From Yuukianura sp. NJ FZ-2021 (taxonomy: Eukaryota), in contig CM102287.1 in assembly GCA_046563655.1 (NCBI GenBank), positions 7,192,001 to 7,256,000 of the forward strand: 64,000 nucleotides of DNA. The letters are read 5' to 3'. Below, piece by piece: positions 4,442 through 58,798 of the stretch. A program made the translations under genes and the position numbers. The number at the start of each line of letters is the position of its first letter. Within the stretch, counting starts at the first letter, position 1. The notes under the pieces were generated by a model. That model saw only the letters and a program-made list of their open reading frames with translations, was not told the origin of the DNA and did no database searches.

Positions 4442-5770
4442 CTACCGAAATGTAAGTAAAAGATCGAGAGTAGTTTTGAACACGACGCTGCAGTATTGGA
4501 GACAAAAGTTTCTACTTGAAACAGTAAATTCATTGCCTATAGTTATGAAATATACTGGGCGACAGGATTTTCTAACGAAACTATCATACTTTGTAAGTGG
4601 TAAATTATGCCAATTTTTGAACGAGTAGCAACGTTCTGAGTAAGCTGTAATGTTTACTGCTATTTGACAAATAACACACCCTGTGGCAAGTAGTGTGAGG
4701 TCAGCGGCAATGAAGATCAGAGGTATGACTGGATTATCCTTCCACTTCATTTTGACAATTACAAACGCAAGTGAAATTGTCTCGATTATGACTGCGTAGT
4801 ATGAAATTTGATACCAAATGTTGTACTGGTCTGAAATGTGGGCTACCAGTACTTGGAGAATTCTGTAAAATTGGTGAAATTTGTCACTTACGATATTACT
4901 ACTATGTTTTCGACCTTCCTGGTCTTGAACTAATGCTTTTAACCACTGTAGAGTTGACAGAATAACGAAAATGACAGTTAGAAGACAAAGTAGTGACCAA
5001 AACATCACCCAGTTTCCAACGATACTTCCCACCAGGATAGTAACAGTGGTTCGCAATGTTTCATTTTTAACACAAGTTGAAGCCACAATAAGAAAATGTT
5101 GTACAAAGAAGAAATTTGTGACTACAGCTAATGTACAAAACAATGGAAATTGAATAAATAGCGACATGAACATGGTATTGAATATACGGACGTAAAACTG
5201 GAACATTTTCTCATCCCTCTTCCACCGCAAAAGATGTCCAAATAATTTTCCTAGTAAAAGTGAGTTGCAAAATCCGCAAAGTTAAAAATGTCAAAGAATG
5301 TTTCAGAAAATCATTTTTATAATTAACTCACGTGCTTCTTGGTCGATTTTGAGAAACTGATTAAAAATTCCCACCGCCTTGCGTTTGTCGGAGTTCCACA
5401 TGAAGTCAGCATAGTAACCAGTCAAAATCACGCCATTTCCAGTCAAATCCACAGCAAGCTTCACTGGTTCATTCAAATGTACAAATGTTTGGTACCAGAA
5501 TATCAAGGTCATTCCGTAACAGAGACAACGAGGCAACCAAGCCCAAACCCAAACTACTTTTGGGTACTTGCTAAATGAGGATGATATTACCATGGTCCAT
5601 TCGGACTTGTTACATACAAGCTCAAACGAAGATATTTTGAAATAGCTTCCAACCTGTAAATACTTCTTGTATTCTGCATAATGGAGCCGTTTTCCACTGT
5701 TTTCCAGGATTTTCTCCAGTTGAAGTGCAGCTGATGCTGTTTCGGTTTCACGCTTTCGTAAACGATCCAT
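4442..5770 (-). CDS. 7TM chemoreceptor-like (GR/OR superfamily-like) protein, ~415 aa, 2 exons (5770-5332, 5250-4442)
   Basis: GT-AG intron 5331-5251 joins the two ORFs in frame (..QEA-R-KLFGHLLRWKR..). Multi-TM profile and size fit arthropod chemoreceptors. C-terminal SCRPVYFITIGNEFTVSSRNF..VVFKTTLDLLL resembles the OR/GR TM7 region. Confidence 0.6.
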
Positions 5771-7304
5771 CGAGAACTGAACACTCTTAAATTCTCATTT
5801 GTTGCTAGCGTATTCAAAACAGTTTGTTTTCAAGTTTGATGTCATTGGATGAATGTGAGACTTCTGTCTTCATTTCGACTTGTAAAACGACTTATGCTTG
5901 CAAACCTAAATTTTTTTATTTTCGAAAAAATTAATTTCCGTTCAATTAATTATTATAACCTTTTTCTTGAAATTTTTCTTTCTTATAGTGATTTTTACTT
6001 ATTTTAAATAAGTTATTTATAACACGACTATGCTGCACTGAAGAGAAAAATTGTAGAATATGACAGAATATAAAAATAAGCAAAAGGAGAGTTTAAAAAC
6101 TTCTTTTTCTGCGTTTTAATTTTTTTAATACGTCTTGTATATTTTTTGTAATAAGTTTTGAATTCTACGCTACTTTATACAATAAATGCAGGAAAAATTA
6201 AAAAATGCTTTTTAAAGCTTTCACCCGCAGTCCCTATGCTTCAAAATTTCGACGTGTAAGCAGAAATTAAAATTTGAAGAATGGAATTGGATTTTTTTTT
6301 GAGAATGGAATCAGCTTCCGGTCGTTTTATTTTTAGAGACCAACGGTTTTCGGTAGGTAACACTTTTAGGCTTCACTTGTTTTATGGTCGTTGGTTTCTG
6401 ACTTTCACTTTTGGAGGTGCGGGACTTTCACTTTTTGGGCAGTTTAGAGGCAGTTATGCTTCCCATTACTCAAAATCCCTCCAACGCTTTAATTCCCACG
6501 GGATCTCCTGTTTCCTTTGCTTGTCTGGTCTAGTATCGTCCAAATAAATTTACAACTGTAGAACAACTCTCAGTTCTATTTCTAAAGTTTGAGTTTTAGA
6601 TTAGGCAGGACTGAGGTGACTGGAAGTATGGTTCAGTTTGAATTTTATTGGAGACCACACGTAAAGCTAAAAAGAGAAAGCAAAATAAAATCCTGGAATG
6701 AGGGATGCTGTATCTGGGCTGTTGCTGGGGTTTTTAATGGTCCAAAAAGAAAAGTCTATAAAAGTTTTCTCATTTAATTTTTATTGGTGGAACTTGTTTT
6801 ACTGTTACGAATTTTCTGGAATTTGGAAAAACTGGAGAATAATGGTTTGTGCAGAAAATTAAGGCGGGAATAAACTTTCTCTTTTCCGGAACGGTTAATG
6901 GGAGGTGTAATTATAATTAAGTAAGGTGCGGAGAAGGTCTAATTAGCTCAATTAAAGATCCACTGCAACCTACGGAACACTCCAGTAGAGACGCAGTAGA
7001 AAACACTTCAGAACTTCATATTAGTATAAAATACTGGATTATGCTTGAGTGTTTGTTGGTTCCAAGCAAACAAAACTCGGCTTCTCATTTATGAGGAACG
7101 CAACGCTTAACCATAAATTAATTAACGTTAAATTTGAAACGCCAATTTAACGCTACAGGTACCATTTAATTAAGTTTAATTGACCTGATTCCCCTGTTTA
7201 ATTATCGATCTACCACTGTATAAGTGTGTAAATTACAAATAATTAAGTAATCGACACTTGCTAAATTTTGATATTAAATTACAGTTATAATTTGTATTTT
7301 TCAG

Positions 7305-14870: not shown

Positions 14871-17474
14871 ATGGAGACGAATTACTATCCCTACCAGAAG
14901 GGTCCTGATGGCTACTTTCACATGGGACCAAATACATTGGCGACAATTAGGAATCATTCTATTCATAGCAGGATACTGTATGAGGATCCGGAATTTCCAC
15001 CAAGTCACCAATCTGTATTCGGAGGTGGTGGATCCAACAACGAAATCCGGTGGCAAGGAAATATATTGTGGAAGAGACCAGTGGTACGCAGTGAAGCGCT
15101 GTAAATTCTAACTTCACATTGACGAAAATGTAATTTGATTTGATTCCTTAGGAGTTAGTTCAAAATCCGCAGTTCATCGCCGACGGAGTGTCGAGATTTG
15201 ATGTCATTCAGGGAGAGTTAGGTAAATACGACCTCACTAAATTTGCCCGATGAAACCAGTCCTTTTTACTTCGTTTTGCCTTGCCCGACGTTAAGGCTTT
15301 TTGGTTTTGTGTTTCTTTCTAGGGAATTGTTGGTTCATCGCTGCTGTCGCCAATTTAACTATGCATCCAAGTCTCTTTGCTCAAGTTGTGCCAATTGATA
15401 ACGGAACATTTAGACAAGGAGAGTACTGTGGAGCCTTTCATTTTCGGTAATCCAGTCTCGAGTCTTGCCAAGTTTATTGTATGACGTGTTTGAAGTTGTT
15501 TGATTTTGCATTTTCAAAGGTTTTGGCAGTATGGTCACTGGATTGATGTAATCATCGACGATCGGCTCCCTTGCAATCGTAAGGGGGAGCTTTTATTTCT
15601 ACACTCAAGCGATAGTCGAGAATTCTGGGGCGCACTGCTTGAAAAAGCTTACGCAAAGTAAATGCCGTAACGTATAATTCATCTTTGTATGTTTCTTTTC
15701 GAACTTGGATGAATGGATGAAGTCTAAAAGTCTGCTAGGTTTGTATTAATTTCGTTGGAATTTGAATTTGTAGGATGCATGGAAGTTATGCTAGTCTTTC
15801 CGGAGGAACTCCAAGTGAAGCCCTTCAAGACTTCAGTGGCGGAATAATCGAGGCCATTGACATTGGTGCAACAACCCCCCATTTGTTTTCTCTCATGCGG
15901 AAGGCATACAATCGGTCTTCGCTGATGAGTTGCAGTTTGAGCGTAAATTGATTTTGGCTTTGTGTAGGAATAAATTGAAATTGAAAAAAATTGAACTCAT
16001 CCTACAACTTAAATGAATTCACTTTTTAGGGACGAGGAGGACGTTATGAAGAGAGGACACGGGACGGTCTTGTCAAAGGCCATGCTTATTCTGTTACGGC
16101 TGTCGACCTCATACCGCTAGTCGGCTCTTACGGAGGTTCCAGTGCTCCATTAGTAAGGATAAGGAATCCTTGGGGTGACAACTTTGAGTGGAAAGGAGCT
16201 TGGAGTGACGGCTCCAGAGAATGGTCTCTCGTTCATCCCAGTGTTCGGGCACAGTTCGGTGTAACGAATCGAAACGATGGAGAGTTTTGGATGAGCATTG
16301 ACGACTTTCAGAAACAGTTCACTCGTTTGGAGATTTGTCATCTGAGTCCAGATCCAATTGATGCTTGTGTGAAACAGTATGGTCGTCCTTGGGACAAACA
16401 AGTTTTGTTTGGGTCATGGGTTCGTGGTGCTACGGCTGGTGGATGCTTAAATAATCGTAAGTTCCCAACCTCATGAAAAAAACACAATTGATTTCTAAAA
16501 ATTTATGCTAAGTGTTCTTTTTTTCAGGCACTTTTGACCAAAACCCACAGTATTTCTTTCATTTCGAAGCTTCGGCAGAGGATGGAGATGCCGATAAGTG
16601 TACCGTCATTGTTGGCTTACTTCAAAAGAGACCAAAGAGAGCCACCACAAATGCTGCCAATAGACAAGCCCAGTGTATTGGCTTTCGAATGTACAAGGTG
16701 AATAAGTACTAAAAACTTTCCGTCTTTGAAAATAATGCAATACTTTTTGTATTTCTTCAGGTAAATGCTTACTACCGCCCCGGAGAAAAGCTGGATCTTG
16801 CTTTCTTCAAGCGGCCTGGCCTAAAGGCATTTACTTCTGGAGATTTCATTGACTCGAGGGAAGTTAGCGCCAGATTTGAAGTTCCTACTGGAAACTACGT
16901 TATTGTTCCATCCACTTACGACCCCAACGAAGAGGGTGAGTTCTTATTGCGCATATTCTCTGAACCGTCTTCCCGACCACCACCTCCGCAGTACACAGTG
17001 CAGCAATTTGCTAGTCAGCATGGTGGAGTTATCGATGGACCAATGATGCCACTACCTCAACCGTCAGCCCCAGCTCCAGCGCCGGTGCAGAACTATTATC
17101 CTGCCTCAGCACAGCCATACCCTCCCCAACAACCGTTTGCACCAAGTGGTGCACCTCCACCATTACCAGCAGCACCACTACCTCCAATTGTTAGTTTTCC
17201 AAATCCGTATGCAGGTTCTAACCAAAGTGCTGCCCCACCTCAGTATCCCCCAGCACAGTCGAGTATGCCTTACCCACCAGCTCCGGGAAATGTACCTGGA
17301 TATCCGCCTCCAACGAACTACGGTATGCCCAGTTATCCTCCAGCACAGGCACAAGTACCGCCATTTCCGGGAAGTGCGCCTCCTTACTACAATCAGGTAC
17401 TTAATGCGACTCCTCAAGAGCATCAGGCTCCGCCAAACATTGGATTTGTCTTTGGACCTCCAAACACATACTAA
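14871..17474 (+). CDS. Atypical calpain (CysPc + C2-like domain III + Pro/Tyr-rich tail, no penta-EF-hand), 8 coding exons
   Basis: [28 protein letters not shown] (catalytic Cys), [24 protein letters not shown] (His), RIRNPWG (Asn), [48 protein letters not shown]. All introns are GT-AG. Confidence 0.92.
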
Positions 17475-17746
17475 CGGACTAAAACATTGAGCTTTAAGTA
17501 TTAATTTTTTACCTTGTAACTTTCTTCAATCTTTGACCTATGTGATATTACATTTTGACTAATTGCAAATTACAACTAATGACCTACTTTTGCATTTGAA
17601 AACATTGATCCAATTTGACGTGTAGTTAATTGGTTGTGAAAGTATTTGCGGTACAGCATTTTTTATGCTGACATGGCAAGAATGCGGGGTGTTACAGTTT
17701 TACATTCCAAACTTTCGAGGTTGTTGGCGACATGACAAAGACATTA

Positions 17747-17791
17747 AACATTTTATAAAGCAACTGCAAGTTAAGTTGCTTATAAAATGTT
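17747..17791 (+). promoter_or_regulatory. Candidate TATA box (TATAAAA 17781-17787) inside an imperfect inverted repeat upstream of laccase 1
   Basis: AACATTTTATAAAGCAACT..AGTTGCTTATAAAATGTT; proposed ATG at 17875. Confidence 0.35.
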
Positions 17792-17874
17792 GCAATCTGC
17801 AACAGCACTGCTAAAAATTCCACTCCAGTTTTAGTTTCGACGAGTGAGGAAGCTACACAACATCTAATTCGAAA

Positions 17875-20737
17875 ATGAGTAAGTTTTACTTTTTATAAAA
17901 ATGTTTCTAAAATCTTTTCGCAATTTAAAATGACATGTTTTTTTTTAAATTTCCAGAACAGCATTTGGTTAAGTGCATTTGGCAGTGGATAGTATTGCTT
18001 TGGGTATCATCGGAACATGGGTATGTAACATTGGCACAAAATGATTCTCCGAGCTCATTGCGAATGTCGAATCCAGCATTTTCAGCATACCTGAATTGCA
18101 TCCTGCCTCATCTCAAACACAAATGTCGTTCCGCCACTTTCAGTCGTATTGCTGACAGGAATTTGTTGAATCAGGTTAAACAAATTATGAAAAACAAGTT
18201 TTCTTTGAACAAAAAGTCCTAATTTCAAGTTCTTAATTTTTGTTTTGATTTTTAAGATTCATTCTGTGCAAAGTCGTCAACGAACTTCCTCTGGAGCATA
18301 TTTGCAAAACCTTGGTACAGCAGAAGCGTTCGCACTTTTTTAATTTCAATTTCCGTTGATTTTGAATTTTTATTTTCAGAATCTCGACCAGTTCAGGATT
18401 CGGCACACTGGAAAACTTGGTACCAAAATCAATACAACCAGGAAGATCCCGACTTAATTTTTAACCCGAAAAATTTAAGAAACAACAGCGCTGGTTATGG
18501 TATAATTAACTTATCTATTAATTATTATGTTTAAATTATTCAAAATATAATATGTTATTTGAACGTTTTCACAGAAACTGATGAATACTGCATCTACGAT
18601 TTGCGAATGTCGTACATCAACGGCTCACCAGACGGCGTTCAAAAGCGAATTATTGGATTCAACGGCCAGTTTCCGGGACCTACTCTCCGATGCACCAAAG
18701 GAAAAACGATGATTGTTCGAGTGACGAACGACATTCAGGACGACGACGAACCAACGTCCATTCACTGGCACGGAATTCAGCAGAACTTGTCTCCGTTCTA
18801 CGACGGACCTCAGTCCATCACTCAGTGTCCAGTCATCAGATCAAACTCAATGATCTACAAGTTTCCAGTCTTCCAGTCCGGCACATACTGGTAAAATACC
18901 CGTCAGCATTTGAATTTTAAACACTCAAATACTCAATTTCACATTGATTTGAAGTAGTTGAAGAAAATGTTTTTCGTTTTGAAGGTATCATTCACACCAT
19001 TCCTATCAATATGTGGACGGCGCTTGGGGATTTCTCATTATCAAAAACACTCCGAAGGAATGCTGGGCAAATTCTTATGATGACGAGCGTCTCATTTCCA
19101 TTAATGACTGGATTCATCGGCCAGCTAAAAACGTCTCGGAAGTATTTCTAACCCAAAACATTTTTCCGCTTTCGAATTCATCGTTAATCAACGGCCGAGG
19201 AACATTTAATTGTTCTAGAGTTGAGACCGGTCAAATCTGTGACCCATCCCTTCAAGGGCCCTCGGTCATCAACGTTGCTCAGGGAAAAAGATACCGGTTC
19301 CGGATTTTGAATTCCTCTGGAGCACAGGCATATAATTTCAGTATCGACGGACACAAGATGGTTGTGATCGAAACGGATGGAGTCGATACCGTCAAGAGTC
19401 CGAAAGTAGATGTCGTTCCAATATTGGCTGCTCAACGGTATTCCGTCATCGTCATCATGGATCAACCAGTAGGAGAGTACTGGATTCGGACTGCTGGAGA
19501 TATTGGAAGTGGACCTGTCACCCAAGGCCGAGCTATTCTTCAGTACATACCGAATCCAGAACCAATCCAGCCAGCTCTTGAGCCAACCGAAACAGATCCT
19601 GGAGTTGAACAGGGACGGCGCGATTATCACGACATTCCGTGGGAGGATTTCATAAAATCCGGCGGTATCAAAGTACCGACGCGAGAAGAACTTCAAAAGT
19701 ATTTCCCATATCCACCGCCAAAAATTAATTTTCAACTGCAAGCTGAAATTGAAGCCAAAGAACTCCGAATTGCCAATCAAACTCCCAAACCGACATCACT
19801 GGCAGTTAATTCCACCGTGGCGGTTCTATTGGATGAACAATCTTGTCCTCCTTTGCAATTTGGAATGTCTGGCAATGCACCACGGATTGTCAACAGACTA
19901 ATTACAATGAATGTGACGGATTGTCCAATTCCAGGAGAAGCAGGGCGCTTGTGCATGAATGCAGAGCCGTTCATTCCGGGGAGCATGTTCAGTCCACCCG
20001 TTTTGTATCAAGTGATTCGAGGAACCCCGATTCAGTCTTCGGTCAGGCCAATCTACACTCCAAAACAAAACCAAGTACGGTTTTCGAAATAAAATTACTC
20101 TAAAATTTCTCAAAATTTCCTAGATTTATTCTTTGAATTTTGTATTTCAGGTTATTTGGATTGTAATCAACAACCGTCACGACCATAATCATCCGTGGCA
20201 CTTGCATGGAAAGACCATATAGCTCAATTTCAATTTCAAAATTTTCAAATGAAATTACAAAAGTTCTTCTTAAAAATATTTATTGATGAAAGCTGAAGTT
20301 GAACTTAAGTTTGGTGTTTTTCAGGTCACACTTTTTGGGTTTTGGGACGAGGAGCACTAGGAGCTGGAGACTTTGTCCTGTCGCGGGACATTTCGAAGCT
20401 GACGACTGCCGGAGCCAGACGTGACACGACACTTTCGCTGGCCAATTCATGGGTTGTTGTGGCCTACATCACTGACAATCCAGGAGCATGGTTTTTCCAT
20501 TGTCACATCAATTGGGTACAAATTGTTAACCTAAAATACCATAATCAAATCAAAATCTAGACTTCATTGATTTTCGACTTTTACCTTTTTCAAGTTTTTT
20601 TTTTTAAATTTTTACAGCATTTGGAGGCGGGGCTTGCAATGACGTTTATCGAGAGTCAAGATATTGCCAAACAGGTTTACAAATTCCCTCCACTGGAATC
20701 TGTTCGTACTTGTGCCAAAGTTGGCGTCACTATTTAA
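17875..20737 (+). CDS. Secreted multicopper oxidase (laccase-like) 1
   Basis: All four Cu motifs are present after splicing: [36 protein letters not shown]. The start (ATG A|GTAAG 17875, then KQHLVKCIWQWIVLLWV..) is less certain. One intron (20209-20324) needs a GA donor. Confidence 0.85.
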
Positions 20738-21157
20738 GTCCTATTCGCTCCCCAACTTTTAAAGTGTTTCTGTGTCTGTGAGTTAGATTTTCCAGGATTT
20801 AAAATAAAGTTTTACGGTTTTTCATTTCCTTCAGAAAAGCTAAGTTGACATGCAATCTGACTAATCCTATTTTTTTTCAAAGTTTAGTTTCTTCAAAAAT
20901 GAAAAAGAACAATAGTTGTTTTTTTTTCTTTAAAAATTTCAGGAAATCCCTTATTTCACTTTACTCTTCCTTAGAAATTCTAAAAACAGAACGCATTATG
21001 TGAAGCCCTGTTTTAAAAAACGGTTTGAAAGACGCGTATTTTTTATGCCAGTAACTTTTGAACAGTTGAGGTAACTTGACCTCAGAGAAACAATTCCACC
21101 AACCTTGGTTTTCAAATATCCAGTGAAATTGTTAAACAACGTCGCTTTGTTTTAAAA

Positions 21158-24013
21158 ATGTCGCCATATTGGTTGCTAGTAATCTTAGCAACATTTGGCC
21201 AAAATGTCGTTGGGCAAATGCCTTCTTCACAACCTTGGTCTCCTTGGGCAATGCCTGGACCGAGCGGATTAACGTCCAACGCGAATCCCGTAAGTTGATT
21301 GGATTTTAGTAAGGTTAGGCTGAAATGAAATTGCTATTAAGAGTGTTTTTACAGTTTCTTTCACTACAGGGTATGAACAATGCTATGCAGTCGTCTATGT
21401 CAAATTTCATGAAGAATTTTGGAAATCCATGGTCAATGCTTAACGGCGGGTCACCGATGAATCACCCTTCTGGACCAATGTTCCAAGGTCAACCTGCTAA
21501 TGGGAACCCAGCAATGAATCGCCCTGTAAACACCGCAGGAGTACCTCAACGTATGCCGTCACAATCCGGAGCACAGATGAATCGGCCAGTCGACTCGTCG
21601 CAGATGCATCGACCAATTGGCTCTGCGCAGTCGCAAAATCCTGCTAGTGGTGAGCATCTTTTCAAAAAAAAAATTCAAGAGAAGTAATCCGATTGTTTAT
21701 GTTCGATTTTACAAACAAAAATTTCAGATTTGTCCGGACCAGCTCGAAACACAGCATTTTGGCAAAACTGGTTCCAGAACAGGGGGAAGGAACAAAACTT
21801 TGTTTTCAATGCAGATCTTGTGAATCAAAATAATTCCGCTGGATATGGTAAGGTCACCATTTTAAGCAAAATTGCTCTACAAAATTTTATTTTATTTTTC
21901 ATTGTGAATTTTTTAGAAACTGATGAATACTGCATCTACGATTTACGCATGTCGTACATCTACGGCTCACCAGACGGCGTTCAAAAGCGAATTATTGGAT
22001 TCAACGGTCAATTTCCGGGACCAACTCTCCGATGCACCAATGGGAAAACGATGATTGTGCGTGTGACGAACGACATCCAGGACGACGACGAACCAACGTC
22101 CATCCACTGGCACGGAATCCAGCAGAACTTGTCTCCGTTCTACGACGGTCCTCAGGCCATCACTCAGTGTCCAGTCATCAGATCAAACTCAATGATCTAC
22201 AAGTTCCCAGTCTTCCAGTCCGGCACATACTGGTAAAATACCCGCCAACATTTGAATTTTAAACATTCAAATACTCAATTTCAAATTGATTTGAAGTAAC
22301 TCAAGATATTTTTCGCTTTGAAGGTATCACTCACACCATTCCTATCAATACGTAGACGGCGCTTGGGGATTCCTCATTATCAAAAACACGCCGCAAGAGT
22401 GCTGGGCAAACTCGTATGACGACGAGCGGCTCATTTCTGTCAATGACTGGACGCATCGTCCAGCTCGTGACATTAGCGAAGTATACTTGACGCAGGGAAA
22501 CTTTCCAGACGTAAATTCGTCACTGATCAACGGTCGTGGGACATTCAATTGCTCGAGTATCGAGAGAGGTCAAGTTTGCAGCTCTACTAAACAGGGACCG
22601 GCTGTAATCAATGTCATTCAGGGAAAGCGATATCGCTTCAGGATTCTGAATTCGTCGGCCGGTAGAACCTACAATGTTAGCATCGATGGACACAAAATGG
22701 TTGTTATTGAAACTGATGGAGTGGACACTGTCAAGAGCCGCAAAGTGGACGTGATTCCGGTGTTGCCAGCACAACGCTATTCCGTCATTGTCATCATGGA
22801 TCAACCAGTGGGACAGTACTGGATAAGGATCTCCGGTGAACCTGCGACCGGAACCGCTGCTGGACTACTTGGACGTGCCATTCTACGCTACACAGCAAAT
22901 CCCGACATTCAAACTCGCTCAGGTCAAATGTCTTTTTCAGAACCGCCGCAACCTGGTACCGGCGTTGGCCAAGGACGACCAGATTACCACGACATTCCTT
23001 GGGACGATATCATCAATTCCGGTGGAGTCCAAGTTCCTTCACGAGAAGAACTTCAAAAATATTTTCCAAACCAACCGCCAAAACTCAACGTCCAACTTCA
23101 GAATCAATTGGATGCAGAACACGTTCAAGTTGCAAATGAAACTCCGCGGCCCAACTCTCGGCCAGTTGACCCCACGCGGGCTGTTCTTCTTGATCACATG
23201 ACCTGTCGACCTCTCCAGTTTGGCGCTGATGGTAAAGCGCCTACGCGATACGACCGAATCATTACTGTGAACATGACGGACTGTCCACTTCCTGGCCAAC
23301 CATCACGCATGTGCATGAACGGTGAGCCGTTTGTTCCGCCCAGTATCAACAGTCCCCCAGTTCTTTATCAATTGATCACTGGAGAAACGGTGCGTAATTC
23401 AGCCAGACCCATCTACACTCCGAATCGCAACGAAGTAAAAATTAAATTTTAATTAATAACAATTAATTTAATGTATAACTGTAAATGTTCAATTTCCAGG
23501 TTGTGTGGCTCGTCGTTAACAACAGACATGCCTTCCCTCATCCTTGGCATTTGCATGGTATGAAACTTGTTTTTAAAAAATGAGGCTGTGAGGTTTTTTT
23601 AAATTTTGAAATGTGCTCATGTAGGTCATACATTTTGGGTGATGGGAGCTGGAGTCAATGGCTCTGGAGATTTTGTGATGTCCAGAGACATTTCCAAATT
23701 GACGGCAGAGGGCGTACGACGGGATACAACTTTTACCCTTGGGAAATCCTGGGCTGTCATAGCCTACAAGACGGACAATCCTGGAGCCTGGTTTTTCCAC
23801 TGTCACATCAACTGGGTCAGTTTTAGACTTAAAAAAATTGTCAAAAAACCAAAGGTCAACTGAATCACGCTTTAAATTTTTGAATTTTTAAAGCATCTGG
23901 AGGCTGGACTTGGACTAACATTTATCGAAGGTGGATCAATCGCGAAACGAGTGTACAAATTCCCACCGAAGGAATCCACTCAAACCTGCGCACGCGTCGG
24001 GGTCACCATTTGA
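21158..24013 (+). CDS. Secreted multicopper oxidase (laccase-like) 2
   Basis: Signal-peptide-like MSPYWLLVILATFGQNVVG, then a Met/Pro/Asn-rich extension, then [33 protein letters not shown]. All introns are GT-AG. Tandem paralog of laccase 1. Confidence 0.9.
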
Positions 24014-27457: not shown

Positions 27458-30400
27458 CTATTTAGCGCCTTCTCCATCAAGCTAAAATAAATCAAAAGCA
27501 GATGAGTTTTCGTCATTCCCAAACACATTTAGATTTTAAATTTTCGTTCGCTTACCGCTTGGAGTTCGGGTTCCTTAAAAATGTGCTTGAGTTGAAGTCG
27601 AATGGGAACCAAAAACATTAGAACAAATGGGAATGCTAGGGCCAAATTTTTTATAGATTTGACGCCAAGAAGAAACGCAAGACATCCAATCTGAATCACC
27701 GTGTATAAATGCATCTTCCAGGTACGAACCTAGAAAATTTTGGGGCAGAAATTGTTTTTACTCAATTACTTTAATTTACTTAAGTGATAGAGCTGTACTT
27801 ACTCGTCTAACGTAGATTTCGGACGGATGTTGCTTGGCCGGAATGAATAAGAGACTCACTCGATCCATCAATTGCGTAGACCCGAGTGACGCAACTCCAA
27901 TATACAGAAAGACTCCATAGAGAACTGCAAGTGGTATGAATTGGAGCACTGGAGCAAGGACAACCGTACAGCCAATCAAAACACTCAAGGCCAAGTTACT
28001 CATTCGCTGTTCTAAAATCAAGTATTCCAGAAACGAATTGAAATTTTGACACTAAATGTTACAAAAGATCTAGATTTTAGAAATTGTGGAGAAAATACCT
28101 TTGACCTCGACAATTTTTGGCTTCTCTCCTGGTGGGTTATTCTGAGAGTACACAGTGAGGGCTGTGACATGCGCCAAGGCTCTCACGGTGGCACAGCACA
28201 GCCAAGGCCCACCGAGAATCCCACACACGACATTCACAAAAGCAATGATCAGCAAATCCAGATGAAACCCACCGCCTTTCACCATCTTCCTCTCTTCTTT
28301 GTTCACGATTAATCTAAACAAAAATATAAAACAGCTCAAAAAGAGAAAAAACTGGTAAAACAGGACGAAACAAGCAGCGAAATTTCAGAAAAAAATTTAA
28401 ACAGCGTTGAATTTTCTTACTCGCAGATTTGAGTCGTCATAAAGATGAGAATGAAGAGCAGAAGAGCCGGAAGGAATGCCAAAATTGCAAAAGTCATGTT
28501 GAACGGAGTTTCCCGCCCCATGATGTCAACGATCCAATCGCGTTGATCAGGATCCGAAGGTTCAAGGCCACTCGGCACCTTCATCTTCCGAGTGTAAGTG
28601 TCTGTAGCATGGTAGTCCAACAATACCATCAGAATCACGGCAATTGGCACACCAAAGTCACCCAAAGCTCTCCTAGCCTAAAAATTCAAATTTTGAAGTT
28701 TCAAAGTTTTGTTTTTCCGAAATATTTCGAAACTGACGTTTAGTAGTTTGAGTTATTTTACCCGTTCACCAAGAAATATACTGTTGCGGAACTGACGCAA
28801 AAAGTAGGCAATGAAAAACGTGCCGAGCATCAAAATCGTTGACAGAAGAGCCGTGTTCGGTTGGCTTCGGATATCTTCGCTCTCGTCTAGGATTGGTTCA
28901 GGGGTAGTTTCTTCATACCTAAACATAAAAAAATTCGTAAATCAAAGAATTTGTGAAAATTCAAATATGAAAAGCTTACCGTATGGAGTAATGTGTTGTA
29001 TTGATTGTAAGAGAAATTGGCCGTGTGTCTCCCTTTGGTGTACCAAGAGGATGATGCGCGTAGATTTCCACGAGATTGTCTAAACTTTCGTAGATGAGAA
29101 GCATTGACGTAAGAGCTGCGAAAATATCTTGCGTAAATCGCGTAAACCATTTTGCAAGTACGGAAGCTTCGAAGAACAGCACTACAATAATGATCAGGAG
29201 CAGCCATATACTGGTCCAGAAGCGCATGGGCAAGAACTCTATGTCAAATCTCAAGCAAGACTGGAAATTAAAAAGAAAAGTTGAATTTTTTGAAATTTTG
29301 ATTTTTTTAAAAATTCCTACCTGATACAAGATTTCATCAAAAACAAGCAGTGGACCGGTTGGACCAATTGGAATCAGCGGTTGGCCAGAAATGAGAGAAA
29401 AGAGCACTCCGGCACCAGCAGTGACCATAAGCGTTTCGGAAGTTCCAATCAAATTGCCCGTTTTGTCGCCAATAAGACCAGCGAATGTTATGATTTGTGC
29501 GACGCTTGCGCAGAACATAAAAATAGTAGTTGCCAAGCACTGGAGATTAAGGCCATCCACGATATCCGACCAATACCAAGGATAGCGTCTGCGTGCATCC
29601 TGATAAACTCCGCCAAACGGAACTCCTGTGCGTTCCATTGTGTTGTATGGCTGCGGTTTCTTTCCGGGAGAACCAGCTGAAACCAAGAACAAAGAAAAGT
29701 TTGAAATTAATTTCGCAAATTTTGAAAAAAAAATTGTTTTGAAAAGTTACAATCGAATGGTTCAATAGCTGCGATCGGTGGTTCGACGTGCGGCTGCACA
29801 AAAGAAAGCTGTTTTCTGATTCGTCGTTTACGTATGGCCTTGCTTTTGCTTTGAAGAAGGTGTAATGGTAAGAGGTCACGGTTGTTCCAGTCTCCCGGGG
29901 GAAGGACGATGGATTCATCAAGGAACTCGTTGATTCCAGCAACTAAACTTTTTCGACTTACTCCACTCATAGCTACTTCGAAAAAGTCCTGGATTTCGAA
30001 AAAAATGTTACTTGTTTTAAAAAATTTCAAAATTGTCAAATCGGTTTTTGCGTTTACTTTGTTCGACATCAATGTTCCAAAAACGCGTCCCATTTCTAGC
30101 AAATCCATTTCTACGTTGGGAGGAATCAGCATCACAGTTATGAATCGAACTGGCACTGGAATCTAAAATTGTTTTTGAGAAAAGATGTTAAAGTTGCTGT
30201 CTTCGTTCACATTTTTCGAAAACTTTGTTCAATAAGAAATTTACTTCAGAAACATTGAAGATGAAGGAAGCTTCTTTGAGTCGAAGAAATAGAAATACTG
30301 GCCTTCGAATCGCTTCAAACTGCCCGACGAAAATCAGCGTCGCTTCGGCTCCATGCGGAAGCCGACGAACGACATGCTCTTTTCCTTGGATCCATTTCAG

Positions 30401-33262
30401 GTCCTCTTCAGATGGACAGTAGCTTTCGTTCAAACCTTTGACCTCCAGCTGAAACCCAGAAAATTAGAAAGCTGTTCTTAAACTTAGCAATACACTTTTC
30501 TTCAAAACAGTTGAAACATATCGCTGAAGCATTACCGAAACATGGTCGGCCCCGTTCGGAGGTGTGCGCAAAAAATTTCCGGAACTTGTTCTCAGTAATA
30601 AGCGTTTTGCATTTTCCGCTTCTCCGGGATGTTTTGTGCTGTTGTGTCTCATTAGCCCCATTGTGTCGGCCATCGATCGATTCCGATGCTTCTCTTCCAA
30701 CAAATTCTGGAAAATAGGAAAACTCTTGCTGTTATTGAAGAATTTTGAATCAGGGCATTTTAAAACAAAAACTCGGTACCTGCATATTTAGAGTTGATGA
30801 AGTAGAAGTGTTGGATCGTCGGAGCCGAAACCAACCACCACCTTCTGCTTCTTGGACATGTTTGTGCTTCAGGAGCAGAATGCGCATGAGCAGTGGACTG
30901 TCTTCGGCACGGATTAGTCCTTTTCCAGCCAACTCTTCTGCGACTCTGTAAGCAATTCCAGGCATGTCCACTTCCTCAATGTCCAACATCACCAATCCTA
31001 AAACCAAAGCAAACGAAATTCAGAAGTGGCTACAAGTTGACCTTGACCTTTGACCTCACCATCGCGTTCAATGAGTTGCTTCAGTTTAAATAGCGAGTAG
31101 AAGCTGAGTGTGGCAACGTGTGGTTTGCCCCACCGCTGTGACCCTGCCTCCAAGTCCTCCTCGTACTTGATCCACCGAGCAGTTTGTTTCCATTCTTTGG
31201 AACTGATTTCTCCATCTCCGCTTAGAACGTGCAATTCCACGAAACCGTAAACAGTCTAAAAATGTTGACAAACCAGAAAAATTGTAAAAAAAAAAAAATT
31301 TGTTTTTATACTTTCCATTTTTCCGCAAAGCTTTACCTCTTTTTCAGTGTCTGTTTTTGTACTGCCGGTGGTAGATGGTTGGTGAGACAAACTGCGATTG
31401 AGCATATGCGGATTTGACTTTTCTTCAGCGATTGGCGGAAGTAGTGAAAGTGCTGAAGCGGGGTGTGCCAAGTAGTCGATCGTTTCGGCTCTACTGCTAC
31501 TCCTTCCAGTGTCACCACTAAGTTCCACATATCTAACAATTTCAAGGTCATTCAAAATTTTCACGATTTTCACAATCCCTGATTCAATATTTTGTAAAAG
31601 TTACTTCTGGGTCTTCGAACACTGAATTATTCCCAATTACAAACTTTAAGGTGTGCGAACACCCTGGAAACGGGGGGTCAAAATGCGGCTGTAACTCATC
31701 AAATGGAAAATGGTCTGGATCAGCGTAGGAAGGTCGTACAATGACCAACAATATATCAAACTTTAGGAAAAGACTTGATCTAGTACCCTGTCGGAGAAAA
31801 TTACAAAATTTTAGTTCTATCTATGTAAATATGGAGGTGGAATGTTTGAGTCAATTTTTTTCACAGTTAGAACTAAAATTGTGTAATTTTCTCCGACAGG
31901 GTACTAGATCAAGTCTTTTCCTAAAGTTTGATATATTGTTGGTCATTGTACGACCTTCCTACGCTGATCCAGACCATTTTTGCATTTCAATGTCACAGTC
32001 TCACAAAAGTTGTTTACATAAACCAAAAGGCGGCAATTTTTTCCCACCCGAATTCAAACTTTCCCAGGTTTCTTGAGCGACGGCGCTTTCTTTTGCCGAT
32101 GTTTGCGACTTTTACAAACTACACAAGTGCTATTACCGTAGTTACTAATTAAAACAAACATTGTTTATTAGGCGCATAACACACGTCCTTAAAACACTTA
32201 AATACTATCAAAATTAATTGATAAAAATTATTTCATACTGATTTGAATTTACCTATTGTCTGCATTGGACTGTTCCTCATCTTCTCCACCTATTTGTAAA
32301 GACAGGTTGTGACCAGGAGGTTTTTCCATTATTGAAGGAATTAAGTTCAGCACAATTGGATCTAAATGTGGTTAGTCTCTTACCAATTTGAAACTGAACT
32401 GCTTTGCTGTTGGGACTTGCGGGGAAGCTAAGAGTTGCAGAAGGAATTGAACTTCGTCTAAAAGTATAAACACAAACCAGTTTAAAAAACATGTAAGAAA
32501 TAAAAGTCTGTTCTGTTACGGCTCATCCAGCTCTAATGACTCGTTTTCAAAATCTCAAATTCTTTCATAGCCCACTTAAGACGAGATTGGGAGATGAGTG
32601 ACAGGATTAAGAACTTGTCTATGCTTTCTTTAGTTGCTAAAGATAGCGTACTAATTCCTTAAGGCAATAAATATGAATTTAACTAGCATTCAATAGGATG
32701 ATAGACGATTCACAGAGTGTCTATTAACGGAAAATGAAGTTTAATTAAAGTTAAAGCTGCGTCTTTCAAGTGATTTCTGAGATGCTATAAATAGATTTTG
32801 AAAAAACAACTTGTAGACCAAAACTTTTACTTTTTGGTTTTTATTAGGTAAAAAGTTTTTATAAAAACTCTTTAGAAGACAAAAGACTTAAGAATTTGAC
32901 GGCCTGAAAAACTTTTTTTTTGAATTCGAATTCATTTCATTTGAACTATTCTAATCACTATTAACTTATTTAATTAAGTTTAACTTTAAATTCATAACTG
33001 ACAATTCATAATGAACTGATACACGTTGTAAATTGTAAAACCGCTATTTTTTGAAAATCTTACCTTCCGGAATTCCATTGCTCGTCATCATCATCGTGTC
33101 CCTTGTTGGCTATTCCACTTTGAGGACTCTGTTACAAAAAAATTTTTTTTATAAAAATTCACATACACAAAAAGAGCAAAAAAAAACAGCAACCAAAAAC
33201 TAATAGCGGTGAGAGAATGTCTGAAAACGTACGTTCTCTACGAAATCCGGAGGATGTTCCAT
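27458..33262 (-). CDS. SLC4 family anion exchanger (AE2/band-3-like) paralog 1
   Basis: [112 protein letters not shown], FPFVL; ends LDGEGAK*. The N-terminal exons (ATG 33262; alternative ATG 32329) are less certain. Confidence 0.9.
31707..31980. repeat. Long near-perfect inverted repeat (113-bp arms, 1 mismatch, 48-bp spacer); foldback/MITE-like, intronic
   Basis: 31707-31819 is the reverse complement of 31868-31980 except at one base. It lies in the SLC4-1 intron ~31534-32251. Confidence 0.9.
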
Positions 33263-34914
33263 GATGAAGTGCGAATAGGAACCTTGGATAGAAAACGAAA
33301 CGTTTCAGATCTTAAAAACTGTTTTCGAAAATCACTTTGAGATTAATTTTGTCACAATTTAAAAAAATTAAAACACACTTGGGGACGTAAGTTACAAAAG
33401 ATTGGCACAGGAATTGATGTTTAGAAAAGGTGTTGTAGACCGAACGTGACCTCAGGAAAGCGTTTTAGAAAAAGAGCAGAGAATTCTATTGTTCTTTTGG
33501 GTATAAACCTGACAGCAAAGGACGGAACTGTGAATTGATTGTTGTAATAAGACTACCCCGAAGGACACTTCAGAATGTCCCTACCGTGACATTGAACTTT
33601 TCCGATGGATTTTAGATTGTCCGTGACGCTACTAGCCTCCTTCGAAAACAATAGAACTCATACCTGGGACTCCTGTTCAAAATATAAACATCTTTTAGAA
33701 CAAAAAACAACGACAATGGACACGTAGCATGAGGAAGTGCTTTTAGCATGAATTGGATTTTTCATAAGAAGCTATAACATAAGAAATGCTCAGAAACTGG
33801 TTGAAGTAACCCAACCGCTTTCTGTTGTACTCATAGTGTAGTGTATCCGTAAAAGTACTCAGATTTCATGCCAAACCACACAAGAGAAAGCCAGCGCTAA
33901 ACGTTATTTGATTTTCTTTAGCGTCACATCTGCATGTAACAGAATTTTGTTTATTTTGAAAAAAAAAATTAATGCATTTTGAACATTGTCCTTTACATTC
34001 AATTGTACTTCATCCTAACCACCTAAATGAATCGCTGTATACAAAAATTGGTGTCTGTTTTACTTCAACCCGAGAAGTTTTAGTGGCATTGCCAAATGTA
34101 TTAAGCATGAATCATAAAATTTATGATGTTGATGTAGAGAAATTTAATGTTACAAAACATGGAACAAGTACGCTGTACCTTCATCTTTTTAAGTGTTAAT
34201 TTAATTTTCTTTTAAGTACTAATTTCTTTAAGTTCTACTAATTTTAGTTCTCATTTAGTTACCTGTTGTTCTGGGTCATAGCCGAAACTGGAAAATAATG
34301 GTACTAGTGAAAGGCAGTAATCGTGTTGACCTCGATATGCATTTTTCTGCATTTCTTTTAACTTTCAACACAACTCACTGCGAAATGTGTTTTACTTTGC
34401 TCATATTATTATTGACTGACTCTGATATTGTTCAAGTGAAATCAAAAAACACAATTTGGAAACTTTCCGATGTTAATGCTTGCATCAGCCATACCCGGCG
34501 CATCTTTGTGACAGGAGAGTGAGAGTCTCATGACCGCAATAAAAAAAATATTGGCAAATTCCATGGTTTCGCGGACTGATTCGGGATTCGGGAATCTTCT
34601 CCCGCCCACAGCAACACAGCTGGAGACTCCAGCAGAAACACTATCATTTCATTTTCTCTTTATCCAGAGTAAAATACACAAATTGCGCAAGGTTTTGACA
34701 AATTACACATCGAAATTCGAAAATACATGTTCCACTTTGTTCTTCATAACGTTATGTTAAGAATGGACGGAGTTTTATTCACTTTGTATAATTTTTACCA
34801 AAGTTTTTTGATTGGTTCAGTCAAAAACCTTGATTTTTACCTAGAAGCACACAATATATTAACCTTAAAACTTGGTTGATGAAGTTGACGAGCGAAAGGC
34901 GGAACATGTACACA

Positions 34915-37900
34915 TTATTTAGCGGGTTCTCCATCCAGCTAAAGAAATATAAACAAAACATTGCTTCAAATTTTCCCGAATACATGTCTTGTGGAAAGCA
35001 AATTTCTGTTACCGCTTGAAGTTCAGCTTCCTGAAAAATGTGCTTGAGTTGCAACCGAATTGGAACCAAAAACATGAGGAGAAACGGAAATGCAAGAGCC
35101 AAGTTTTTGATTGATTTGACGCCAAGGAGAAACGCAAGACATCCAATTTGAATCAACGTGTACAAATGCATTTTCCAAGTTTTCACCTTCAAAAATTCAA
35201 TCAAAGAGGTTCTCCAAATCAGAATGGAGATTCTTTGTCATTGCGGTATTAATCGTAAGTATTGTATTGGTATAACTGACCCGCCTGACATAGATCTCCG
35301 AAGGATGTTGCTTGGGAGGAATGAACAGAAGATTGACTCGATCCCACATCTGCGTAGTGCCAAGTGACGCAACTCCAATATACAGGAAGACGCCATAGAG
35401 AACTGCAAGTGGAATGAATTGGAGTATTGGCGCAAGGGCAATGCTACAACCAATCAAAATGCTCAGAGCGAAGTTCGTGACACGCTGCTCTACACAACAA
35501 AACATCAAAACACTTCAAGTTATTTCCAGAAAAGCTAATATTTTCGGCCATTTTCAGAAAATGTCATTTTTGATAATTGAAGAAATACCTTTGACCTCCA
35601 CAATTTTTGGTTTTTCTCCTGGTGGATGGTTTTCTGAGTAAACAGTTAAAGCTGTGACGTGGGCCAAGGCTCTTGGAGTGGCACAGCAAAGCCACGGCCC
35701 ACCAAAAACACCACAAATTACATTCAGACATGCCATGATCAGCAAATCCAAGTGAAATCCACCGCCTTTCACCATTTTCCGCTCTTCTTTGTTCACAATT
35801 AACCTAAATAATTTTTCAAAAAAAAAAGAAGCAAAATCAAAATAGCAATCTACAAAACAATTTTCGGTGGACAAAAATTTCGGTAAAAATTTAAACGTGT
35901 CATTTACTTTTTAGCTCACCTGCCATGCGGAGGGCAGCAGGTGGACGAAAATTTCAGTAAAAATTTAAACGACGTCGAACTTCCTTACTCGCAAATTTCA
36001 GTCGTCATAAAGATGAGAATGAAGAGCAGAATGGCGGGAAGGAATGCCAAAATTGCAAAAGTCATGTTGAACGGAGTTTCCCGCCCCATGATGTCAACGA
36101 TCCAATCGCGTTGATCGGGATCCGAAGGTTCAAGGCCACTCGGCACCTTCATCTTCCGAGTGTAAGTGTCTGTAGCATGGTAGTCCAATAACACCATCAG
36201 AATCACGGCAATTGGCACACCAAAGTCACCCAAAGCTCTCCTAGCCTAAAAATTCAAATTTTGAAGTTTCAAAGTTTTGTTTTTACGAAATATTTCGAAA
36301 ATGAAGTGGAGCAATTTGAGATATTTTACCCGTTCTCCAAGAAATATACTGTGGCGGAACTCACGCAAAAAATATGCGATGAAAAAAGTTCCGAGCATCA
36401 AAATCGTTGAAAGAAGAGCCGTGTTCGGTTGGCTTCGAATATCTTCACTTTCGTCTATGATTGTTGCAGCAGTAGTTTGTTCATACCTAGCAAATACTTG
36501 GAAGTTTTTTAAAAAATTCAAAATTTTACTTCAAAAATTTGAAATTACAGAATACTCTCCGGAGTTGTGTCGTTTGTGAGGTACATGAGTGATGTCGATG
36601 TGTATTTCCTGGGTGTACCCAGTGGATGATGTACGTAGATTTTTATGAGATTGGCCAAACTTTCGTAGATGAGAAGCATTGATATCAGAGCTGCAAAAAT
36701 ATCTTGCGTAAATCGAGTAAACCATTTAGCAAGTACGGAAGCCTCGAAGAACAGCACGACTAGAGTAATCAAGAGGAGCCATATGCTGATCCAGAAGCGC
36801 ATGGGCAGGAACTCTATGTCCAAGCTTGTGCAAGACTGCAAGTAAAAATTCAAAATTTGAAATCTCCCTGAAACGGTGAATTCAAACAAAAACTGACATG
36901 GTATAGAATTTCATCGAAGACAAGTAGTGCCCCGGTCGGACCAAGCGTAATTAGCGGTTGGCCGGAAAAACAAGAGTAAAGCACTCCAACACCGGCAGTG
37001 ACCATGATAGTTTCGGAAGTCCCAATCAAATTGCCTGTTTTGTCGCCACTAAGACCCGCGAAAGTAATTATTTGAGAGACGCTTGCGCAGAACATGAACA
37101 AGGTTGTTGCCAAGCACTGGAAGTTGAGTCCATCCTTGATGTCTGACCAGTACCAATCATAGCGTCTGCAAGCCTCTTGCAAAACTCCGCCAAACGGAAC
37201 GCCTGTACGCTTCATAGGGTTGTACTTCTGTCGTTTCTTTCCAGAAGATTCCGCTGAAAAAAGCATTTCTCAAAAACTTAGAATTCCAAACAACATTTTA
37301 AAATTGTTAAATCTTGGAAACATCAACGTATTTTTAACAGTTTACTTACAATCGAATGGTTCCACGACTGCAACCTGCGGTTCGACTTGCGGCTGCGCAA
37401 AAGAAAGTTGCCTTTTCATTTGTCGTTTGCGTTGGGCATTGGTCTTGCTCTGTAGCTGCAAAATGTGTAATGGCAGAAGGTCACCGTTGTCCCAGTCTCC
37501 TGGGGGTAACACTATTGATTCTTCCAGGAATTCGCTAATTCCAGCGGCCAAGCTTTTTCGACTTACGCCACCCTTAGCCACTTCGAAAAAATCCTGAAAC
37601 ATTTTAAAAATTTGGATTACAAAGTCCCAGTTTAGAAACGTATAGCATTGTTTTTTTTATACTTTGTTGGACATCAGCGTTCCAAACGCTCGTCCGATTT
37701 CTATCAAGTCCACATCAATACTTGGAGGAACAAGAATGATAGTGACGAATCGAACAGGAGCTGGAACCTAAAACGATATGTATTGTGCATTTTTAACTTT
37801 TCGCAAAACACCCCGCCCTTCTTAAAGCACTCTTGAAATTTTTACTTCGCAAACGTTAACATTGAAGGAAGCTTCTTTGAGTCGAAGGAATAGAAACACT

Positions 37901-58026: not shown

Positions 58027-58798
58027 TACTGCGGTTTTCTCCAGGTTTTGAACACGATTTTACATCGGATTAAAAATTCCGTGTACAAAATCATGTGAAA
58101 AGGTTACTTGAGAAAACGTAAATGCCAGAGTGCAAAAGTTTGCGGCAACAACTTTAATGAAATCTTTCGTCGGTGGGGTTACGACGCTGCCCAATATGCA
58201 ATGGAATTATTTCAGTAAAACCATATAGAAATGCGTATTTACAGTAGCTTATTGCACAGCCTTTGTCAATTTTTGTTCAGTAGTGGGTTTGAAAATGAAT
58301 TTTAGAAATTTTTTCAATATTTAGCTTGGTGAACTTTCTTGACATGAAGGAATTCATATACATTAACTTATTTTCTAAATAAATAATCTTTTTCCCACAA
58401 AACTGTATAGGACAGCCAGAATTTTTTTTTACATGGTGTCCAACTGGACCAAAAATTTTGCAACTTCTTCGAAATTTTTTTTAGGCTTATGCCATCGAAA
58501 ATATGACGGAAGCCCTTTGTGTGATTTCCTTTTATTAGTATGGGATAACTATTGAAAATAGTGCTTTTTTTTAATTAAATTGTGACTTAAGAAATCCCTG
58601 AACTTAACCTTGGATTGAATTATGTTTGAATAGGTCGTCAAATTGCGTCTTTCCAAATGCGTCTTTCGAAATTAAACAACGTCAAACTTTTGCTATTGTC
58701 TCCAGCTCACTCCACCAGAGCATTAATCAGTTCCGTTTTGAATTTTGTTGTGCAAAACTGAAAATTAAAAACAAAAATCTTTTTTTAAGATTCTCAAA

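Follow-up and report, generated by a model that had tools for sequence, protein, structure and literature searches.

Three-domain laccase-like multicopper oxidases (MCOs) presumably correspond to CAZy AA1, and in animals they include those of the metazoan or insect type (e.g., MCO1 and Laccase2). These have Met as the axial ligand of the type 1 (T1) copper, a Cys-rich N-terminus, and a motif of the GTHFWHAH type; Laccase2 is said to be insect-specific, in the title of a 2019 review by Asano et al. that PMC13449613 cites. Springtails are also known to have laccases of a fungal-like kind. The Folsomia candida genome paper counts “three laccases” among the fungus-derived candidates for horizontal gene transfer, assigns them to Rhizophagus, and proposes a dietary-type role for them, involving phenolics and the gut (PMC5490193). 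In the accessible part of its supplements no “laccase” entry was found. Full-text literature searches found no dedicated study of fungus-like springtail laccases; the subject is represented in print by one sentence, that of PMC5490193. The two genes described here, named LACA and LACB, lie in tandem on the plus strand of a 64,000-nucleotide stretch of contig CM102287.1, from the assembly of Yuukianura sp. NJ FZ-2021 (GCA_046563655.1); this whole stretch is referred to as the window, and all positions are window positions. That LACA and LACB are true MCO genes and form part of an animal genome is near certain. They are interpreted, with a probability of roughly 0.6, as old tandem paralogues of a fungal-type MCO family that resides in an arthropod genome (most likely that of a springtail or a near relative), entered this lineage by a single ancient fungal or fungus-like transfer, and was then domesticated. 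Fungal-like springtail laccases being known already, what this locus adds is a set of previously undescribed features of the family.

Open reading frames (ORFs) and the raw sequence define LACA (about 18380-20737) and LACB (21158-24013) as three-domain MCO genes. A tblastn search of the whole 64-kb window with the spliced LACB protein returned exactly two copies, LACA and LACB, and Pfam domains are present in both, which bears out the tandem laccase pair of the original prediction, a model's reading of the letters alone. LACB has eight exons and seven GT-AG introns of 65-91 nt, and its frame remains open for 775 codons (775 aa). Exon 1 (21158-21289) supplies the start codon and an N-terminus, MSPYWLLVILATFGQNVVGQ, that resembles a signal peptide when judged by eye. 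Exon 2 (21370-21649) encodes a low-complexity segment of 93 aa, rich in Met, Pro, Asn, Gln, and Ser, which contains 11 Met and repeated (A/Q)M(N/H)RP(V/I) units; a Pfam search with this exon gave no match. Exon 3 (21728-21847) encodes the segment AFWQNWF...NNSAGYG, which is conserved in LACA and in the loci L001, L002, L005, and L009. Cupredoxin domain 1, with its HWHG motif, begins in exon 4 (21917-22232; Pfam Cu-oxidase_3, E 1.2e-26), which ends within the motif GTYWYHSH, between W and Y. Exon 5 (22324-23434; Cu-oxidase, E 1.2e-34) resumes at YHSH to complete domain 1 and continues through domain 2 and a linker of about 150 aa to the start of domain 3. Exon 6 (23500-23557) ends in HPWHLHG, exon 7 (23625-23815; Cu-oxidase_2, E 1.8e-13) carries domain 3 as far as FFHCHINW, and exon 8 (23894-24013) runs from HLEAGL, which holds the last T1 His and the axial Leu, to the stop codon.

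The corresponding plus-strand exons of LACA are the homologue of LACB exon 3 (18380-18499), exon 4 with domain 1 (18575-18890; Cu-oxidase_3, E 4.9e-27), exon 5 with domain 2 and the linker (18985-20074; Cu-oxidase, E 2.7e-33), exon 6 with HPWHLHG (20151-20208), exon 7 with domain 3 (20325-20515; Cu-oxidase_2, E 2.6e-13), and exon 8 (20618-20737), which ends at a stop codon. The domain order in both genes is Cu-oxidase_3, Cu-oxidase, Cu-oxidase_2, and with E values from 1e-13 to 1e-34 in both, the MCO assignment is far beyond chance. Four peptide strings had been quoted in advance, and all four were found in place: one in exon 4 of both genes, one in LACA exon 5, one across a phase-2 intron, and one across a phase-0 intron. 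The three intron positions that had been named are likewise real in both genes.

No homologue of LACB exons 1-2 was found upstream of LACA in the window by tblastn. A loose search for a 5′ exon encoding a signal peptide produced 630 models, and strict splice-site criteria left two candidate 5′ coding exons, ATGA at 17875-17878 before the donor GTAAGT and ATGG at 18017-18020 before GTATGT. Both are first coding exons of only 4 bases spliced to 18380, both contribute a single Met plus a split codon, and a signal peptide is obtained with neither of them. The start at 17875 proposed in the original prediction works as such an exon, although the one at 18017 fits equally well. Further downstream, the LACA intron after HLHG opens with a non-canonical GA (20209-20210), whereas LACB has GT at this donor; read-through past exon 6 meets a stop after three further codons. 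A separately assembled contig from a run of the same sample (X1) covers 19013-20415 with 5 differences, all listed at positions other than the GA, so the GA donor is real in that sample and not an assembly slip. LACA may be freshly disabled, or it may be unusually spliced.

Both spliced proteins contain all four copper-ligand motifs (HWH, HSH, HxxHxH, and HCHxxxH), amounting to 10 His and 1 Cys, and the axial T1 residue is Leu in both. The first 180 aa of LACB contain no Cys, and the motif HFWH[AS]H occurs in none of the 298 MCO sequences compared. The best matches in the PDB are fungal laccases for all three domains (E 4.8e-18 for domain 1, 3.6e-31 for domain 2, and 3.7e-11 for domain 3), and the nearest protein-atlas clusters are MCO fragments from Ascomycota. 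The fungal look that had been noted, unlike that of metazoan-type MCOs, is supported by these motifs, the axial Leu, the Cys-free N-terminus of LACB, and the PDB matches. In NCBIfam the best model for three exons is plant ascorbate oxidase TIGR03388 (E 5e-29, 3e-24, and 3e-11), at 42-101 bits against a cut-off of 614.8 bits; NCBIfam has no fungal laccase model, so this ranking is an unfair contest. The predicted structure of exon 5, made from an 11-row alignment, is poor (mean pLDDT 48.3, below 50 in the linker).

Homologues were sought with LACB exon 5 as the query. A word-indexed search at E <= 1e-5, which could see only proteins of 203-648 aa, returned 35 proteins, of which 11 are unnamed metagenome/Logan ORFs with 39-63% identity; these are followed by a Batrachochytrium laccase (41% identity over 51% of the query) and then by agaricomycete laccases. 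An exhaustive search of 1.84 billion representatives gave 2270 matches at E <= 1e-3. Only 6 of the best 150 representatives align past residue ~260 of exon 5, the others covering domain 2 alone, and fungal matches align only to residues 1-170/200; because so few of the best representatives align there, the ~150 aa between domains 2 and 3 are considered a family-specific linker. Within this linker Q216, G217, and R218 are invariant, and the elements QGR(P), AP..YD, and MNG are conserved; they are common to the window genes and the Orchesella proteins. Names came from a profile of 36 top full-length representatives, which identified P0106 as “Laccase-2 [Orchesella cincta]” along with five further proteins of Orchesella dallaii. 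After Orchesella, the profile matched MCOs of chytrids, ascomycetes, and basidiomycetes together with Fet3, and then a crinoid protein, plant laccases, SKU5, and bacterial CopA. One of the O. dallaii proteins, P0248, is at 1152 aa roughly double the size of an MCO; possibly the annotation has merged two tandem MCO genes, which would imply tandem arrays in Orchesella too.

Trees were built with FastTree (171 rows) and with IQ-TREE, the latter in a quick run and in a careful maximum-likelihood (ML) run of 71 rows x 528 columns (LG+G4; support as UFBoot/SH-aLRT). In the careful tree the window genes and six metagenome ORFs form a clade (100/99), which is joined by the O. cincta Laccase-2 (P0106) and an O. 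dallaii homologue (P0253) with support of 100/98 (97 SH-aLRT in the quick tree and 96 in FastTree). Together with a second group holding the other O. dallaii proteins, they make up a 19-row clade (100/99) in which springtails are the sole named animals, and indeed the only named members, among the matches listed by the word- and length-filtered searches. All of the runs agree on these three groupings. The notion that the acquisition was particular to this genome has to be abandoned, given this well-supported clade with Orchesella and the F. candida laccases already reported in PMC5490193. In the careful tree, the sister group of the 19-row clade (69/95) brings together basidiomycete laccases, Fet3, and MCOs of chytrids and Glomeromycota. 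Ascomycete lineages branch outside these two (59/75 and 49/55), and plants, bacteria, and a crinoid-containing clade lie beyond them; no nesting inside the basidiomycete or ascomycete laccase clades, or in the Fet3 clade, was found in the careful tree. An old fungus-to-arthropod transfer is favored because of this topology, the identity of motifs with named fungal laccases, and the springtail-restricted distribution. A fungal origin is thus the best reading of the sequences, though not a proven one.

Several observations weigh against it. The deep backbone of the careful tree is weak (49-69% bootstrap). A tree that unites every fungal row and leaves the springtail clade outside them (-10.2 lnL, i.e., log-likelihood units) was not rejected by the approximately unbiased (AU) test (p-AU 0.309), and neither was one that joins the springtail clade to the clade of the crinoid Antedon (-17.2 lnL, p-AU 0.242), so that phylogeny alone does not establish a fungal donor; the grouping with metazoan MCOs was tested through the Antedon-containing clade only. 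Furthermore, the 19-row clade includes 7 unnamed full-length proteins and 6 unnamed metagenome exon-5 ORFs, and LACA itself has GA at one splice donor and lacks a visible signal peptide. The proposal of a fungus-derived laccase that was domesticated and duplicated holds as far as the ML topology, the age of the duplication, and the added modules are concerned, whereas the donor is unproven at 69% bootstrap and with these two AU results. Grouping with metazoan MCOs, which had been named as the contrary outcome, does not appear in the ML tree, where the two clades are separate, although their union is not rejected.

The same two AU tests, which reject neither fungal monophyly nor the union with Antedon, agree with vertical descent. 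On that account an ancient opisthokont or animal MCO lineage was kept in springtails, and perhaps in other poorly sampled animals, and was lost in most; the likeness to fungal proteins would reflect shared ancestry and slow evolution. Vertical descent is considered unlikely, though deserving of serious weight. The springtail clade is nearer to the fungal laccase/Fet3/chytrid clade in the ML tree than some ascomycete MCOs are, and its copper motifs and axial Leu are nearly identical to those of named basidiomycete laccases. Moreover, with springtails accounting for every named clade member in the 35 and 120 matches listed, vertical descent needs many independent losses.

A viral vector was also considered and rejected. 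The MCO of a giant-virus-like metagenome contig, L015, groups with unnamed representatives (P0127, P0128, P0131, and P0150) in the “fungal” half of the tree and not beside the springtail clade; because of this grouping, part of that “fungal” half may be viral or protist. The contig (L015:1-11314) has 35% GC and no interrupted ORFs, and from its gene content it looks like a giant virus. It encodes a full-length MCO with a signal peptide at 4461-6119, in addition to an HNH+AP2 endonuclease-like protein, a dual-specificity phosphatase, a 675-aa ORF, a peroxidase, a PL14 polysaccharide lyase, and a chitin synthase.

Returning to the reading as an old transfer, its age is recorded in the divergence of the two paralogues and in their introns. 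LACA and LACB are 72% identical as proteins. Synonymous divergence (dS) is ~2.5, and thus saturated, outside a tract of gene conversion, and the ratio of nonsynonymous to synonymous divergence (dN/dS) is 0.09 there; the duplication is therefore old, and purifying selection has acted on both copies. The conversion tract, of about 500 bp, joins 18575-19085 in LACA to about 21917-22424 in LACB and runs from exon 4 through intron 4 into the first ~100 nt of exon 5, all on the plus strand. Nucleotide identity within it is 95% in exon 4, 90% in intron 4, and 89% in the first 100 nt of exon 5, compared with 53-72% in the remaining exons and 48-62% in the remaining introns. With a dS of 0.33 within the tract, as against ~2.5 elsewhere, the conversion appears to be recent.

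Introns extend this record to more distant relatives. In proteins of 39-63% identity (P0001-P0005 and P0009), similarity starts exactly at (R)YHSHH and stops at the E or Q that precedes a V across the far exon border, and because the limits of similarity fall exactly there, the two introns flanking exon 5 are taken to be common to these relatives. A basal member of the clade, P0136 (= L017), has an ORF that opens at RWHSH in like manner. A survey of 26 metagenome loci found the intron between W and YHSH in at least 10; it is absent from L013 and from the fungal locus L024. Introns 4 and 5 are present in L010, introns 6 and 7 are absent from it, and all are present in L002; the differences among L010, L002, and L013 indicate that introns were gained or lost in stages within the lineage. 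The comparison of intron positions with fungal genes that had been called for extends, so far as it goes, to the single fungal locus L024. The family is old and long resident in the host lineage, since dS is saturated and introns are common to distant relatives, and it represents neither a fresh nor a unique acquisition. The same signs of age, namely conserved introns, saturated dS, and a linker of its own, would also be expected of a vertically inherited family, and the lack of the W-YHSH intron in the fungal locus L024 is likewise on the side of vertical descent.

The N-terminal region has been remodeled within the family. In L005 the exon homologous to exon 3 encodes a signal peptide, an FWKTWF motif, and a CBM_14 domain (peritrophin-A, chitin-binding; Pfam 1e-08, 35.6 bits against a cut-off of 22.1), and it ends ...AIGYG immediately before a GT, as in the window genes. 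The metagenome relative L002 has a signal peptide followed by a Met/Pro/Asn-rich segment that resembles LACB exon 2. The signal peptide, the Met-rich segment, and CBM_14 would be host-side additions to a foreign catalytic core.

Genomic setting bears on whether the genes belong to the animal at all. Both laccase genes look fungus-like at the protein level, and numerous variant contigs occur in the sequencing runs that cover this stretch, as would be the case if DNA of a fungus in the sample had been misjoined to animal DNA. This explanation is nonetheless exceedingly improbable. The upstream calpain ORF ends at 17474 and the LACA exons are under way by 18380, and the junction between them is bridged by contigs from X1 (17193-18550, to exon 3) and X2 (16806-18064), two runs of one sample that are hence not fully independent. 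An X2 contig (22866-25103) likewise extends out of the 3′ end of LACB, and a run of another study, X5, contains a 96%-identical copy over 22554-23769 that includes intron 5, parts of intron 6, and flanks. GC content at third codon positions (GC3) is 0.46-0.49 in the laccase genes and 0.43-0.45 in neighboring genes, the laccase introns are short (65-116 nt) and have 25% GC, as fits an AT-rich host, and the same family is present in named springtail annotations. The junction contigs, the GC3 match, the 25%-GC introns, and the X5 copy make contamination or chimeric assembly very unlikely. The claim that the genes sit between animal genes and have short AT-rich introns like their neighbors is accordingly well founded on Pfam-identified flanks, bridging contigs, GC3, and intron composition.

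Two further observations concern contigs of the same runs. The X5 contig over window positions 22472-23872 (3′ LACB exon 5 to exon 7) has a depth of 70-99, whereas its flanks have 1-7; this excess could mean that a LACB-like stretch has been amplified in copy number in that organism, that there is a second abundant carrier, or that the depth is an artifact. Contigs of 896 nt and 5553 nt from X1/X2 match window positions 19283-19401 and 22045-22238 (pieces of exon 5 and exon 4) at ~82% identity in a different arrangement, which points to one or more additional laccase paralogues, either at another place in the genome or in a relative sampled along with it.

The neighbors of LACA and LACB were identified by Pfam searches on 127 of the 149 window ORFs of at least 80 aa, those in overlapping frames inside the laccase region being left out, and they are animal genes. 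Directly upstream of LACA are the 3′ exons of a calpain gene (16030-17474, plus strand; Peptidase_C2, 3e-34; Calpain_III, 1e-15), the last ORF of which (16713-17474) has a tail of ~170 aa after domain III that is rich in Pro, Gln, Ala, and Tyr. Downstream, two tandem SLC4/Band-3 genes with Band_3_cyto and HCO3_cotransp domains lie on the minus strand at 27.7-31.3 kb and 34.8-38.8 kb (27700-31300 and 34800-38850); this pair of anion exchangers is a second tandem duplication in the window. A protein-atlas search with one SLC4 exon gave no pointer to the phylum of the host. Exons of secretin-type G-protein-coupled receptors (Pfam 7tm_2) are located at ~10 kb on the plus strand and, with an HRM domain, at 48-51.5 kb on the minus strand. 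An A2M/TEP/CD109-like thioester-protein gene, also assigned by Pfam, occupies 58769-63410 on the plus strand and has an unusually long uninterrupted ORF of 1027 codons. Its best named matches are bee TEPs, at only 27-28% identity, and one metagenome ORF reaches 43%; in FastTree, bee TEPs and a tardigrade CD109 are its neighbors (98 SH-like), as would fit a panarthropod host that lacks close sequenced relatives among the named proteins. ORFs from the window flanks had no match in the 26 metagenome loci that would indicate synteny.

A history consistent with the preferred reading, old transfer followed by domestication, would begin with a single horizontal entry into the lineage long ago, from a fungus or a fungus-like donor. 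Domestication would have followed through the stepwise gain of spliceosomal introns, a host-type secretion signal, N-terminal add-ons, and the linker between domains 2 and 3, and then through multiplication of the gene. LACB most likely encodes an intact blue copper oxidase destined for secretion. At its T1 copper, which is bound by His-Cys-His and faces a Leu that does not coordinate it, phenolic or other small substrates would give up electrons one at a time; a relatively high potential of this site is expected from the axial Leu. Electrons would then cross the Cys-His bridge to a trinuclear cluster held by eight His, where O2 would be reduced to water. LACA was maintained by purifying selection over the greater part of its history.

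Candidate substrates include phenolics of dietary or humic origin and pigments of fungi in the gut, catechols of the cuticle or the peritrophic matrix (as the CBM_14-bearing paralogue would suggest), and, less convincingly, metal ions. The role in phenolic or lignin oxidation in the diet that had been suggested is backed by nothing found here, and the CBM_14 of one relative would fit the cuticle or peritrophic matrix at least equally well. In a bolder version of this idea, a domesticated fungal oxidase found throughout springtails or more widely among soil arthropods, and rebuilt with animal modules, would serve as the phenoloxidase of the chitinous cuticle or peritrophic matrix where insect Laccase2 is lacking. 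This is a speculative proposal, and a doubtful one; if true, the tanning of the cuticle or the chemistry of the gut lining depends on a horizontally acquired enzyme in a hexapod lineage that is among the oldest on land.

Instead of a phenol-oxidizing laccase, the family could be a metal oxidase (ferroxidase or cuprous oxidase) with a function in iron or copper handling. FastTree places the larger group to which it belongs as sister to the Fet3 ferroxidases of fungi (92 SH-like), whereas the careful tree shows no specific Fet3 placement. The N-terminal region of LACB is also rich in Met (11 in 93 aa), and it may resemble the Met-rich copper-binding segments that are found in CueO and CopA. However, Fet3p has a C-terminal membrane anchor, whereas LACB ends directly after domain 3 and has no membrane anchor, and domain 2 matches PDB laccases at 3.6e-31 but Fet3 at only 1.9e-08. 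A metal-oxidase function is thus improbable on present sequence comparisons. Whatever its substrate, a gene that is long resident, maintained by purifying selection, supplied stepwise with introns, expanded, and remodeled would make this locus a useful case of a foreign enzyme naturalized in an animal genome. It raises the question of whether a soil hexapod uses such an enzyme on its diet (phenolics, fungal melanin, and humic matter) or on its own chitinous structures.

Among known systems, plant ascorbate oxidase (TIGR03388; PDB 1aoz) ranks high in the PDB matches for domain 1, and plants fall outside the clade in the trees. The clade of the crinoid Antedon mediterranea (P0284), with its unnamed proteins of 725-876 aa, which we liken to insect MCO1/Laccase2, probably stands for the canonical metazoan MCOs. 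Like the window genes, its members are animal-encoded and have the three-domain MCO fold. In contrast to LACB, with its axial Leu, they have an axial Met (e.g., HCHIEVHQLEGM), and their first 150 aa contain 6 Cys in two of the five members checked and 2-3 in the others, whereas LACB has 0 Cys in 180 aa. The two clades are separate in the ML tree, with a union that is not rejected (p-AU 0.242). From the insect type as outlined at the start, the window genes differ in having GTYWYHSH, an axial Leu, and no Cys in those 180 residues of LACB.

The fungal structures compared (PDB 9gly, 5nq8, 1gyc, 3sqr/3v9e, 3pps, and 1gw0), which we take to be basidiomycete and ascomycete laccases, have the same three cupredoxin domains, the same four copper motifs, and a non-coordinating axial residue, as the window genes do. 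Named basidiomycete laccases show the motif HCHIDWHL..G[LF], and the window genes have HCHINWH with an axial Leu; the Rickenella laccase (HCHIDWHLEAGL) matches them in copper motif and axial Leu nearly letter for letter. Unlike these enzymes, the window genes fall outside the fungal clades, and they have an extra linker of ~150 aa, eight exons with host-type introns, and N-terminal add-ons. The closest described proteins are those of the Orchesella “Laccase-2” type (P0106, 681 aa, and P0253), which share with the window genes the same clade, HPWHLHGH, a Leu or Phe axial residue, the QGR linker, and an animal genome as their source. Even so, identity between the Orchesella proteins and the window genes is only 30-33% along the exon 5 alignment and 48% within domain 2, and LACB is set apart from the former by its Met/Pro/Asn-rich N-terminal extension.

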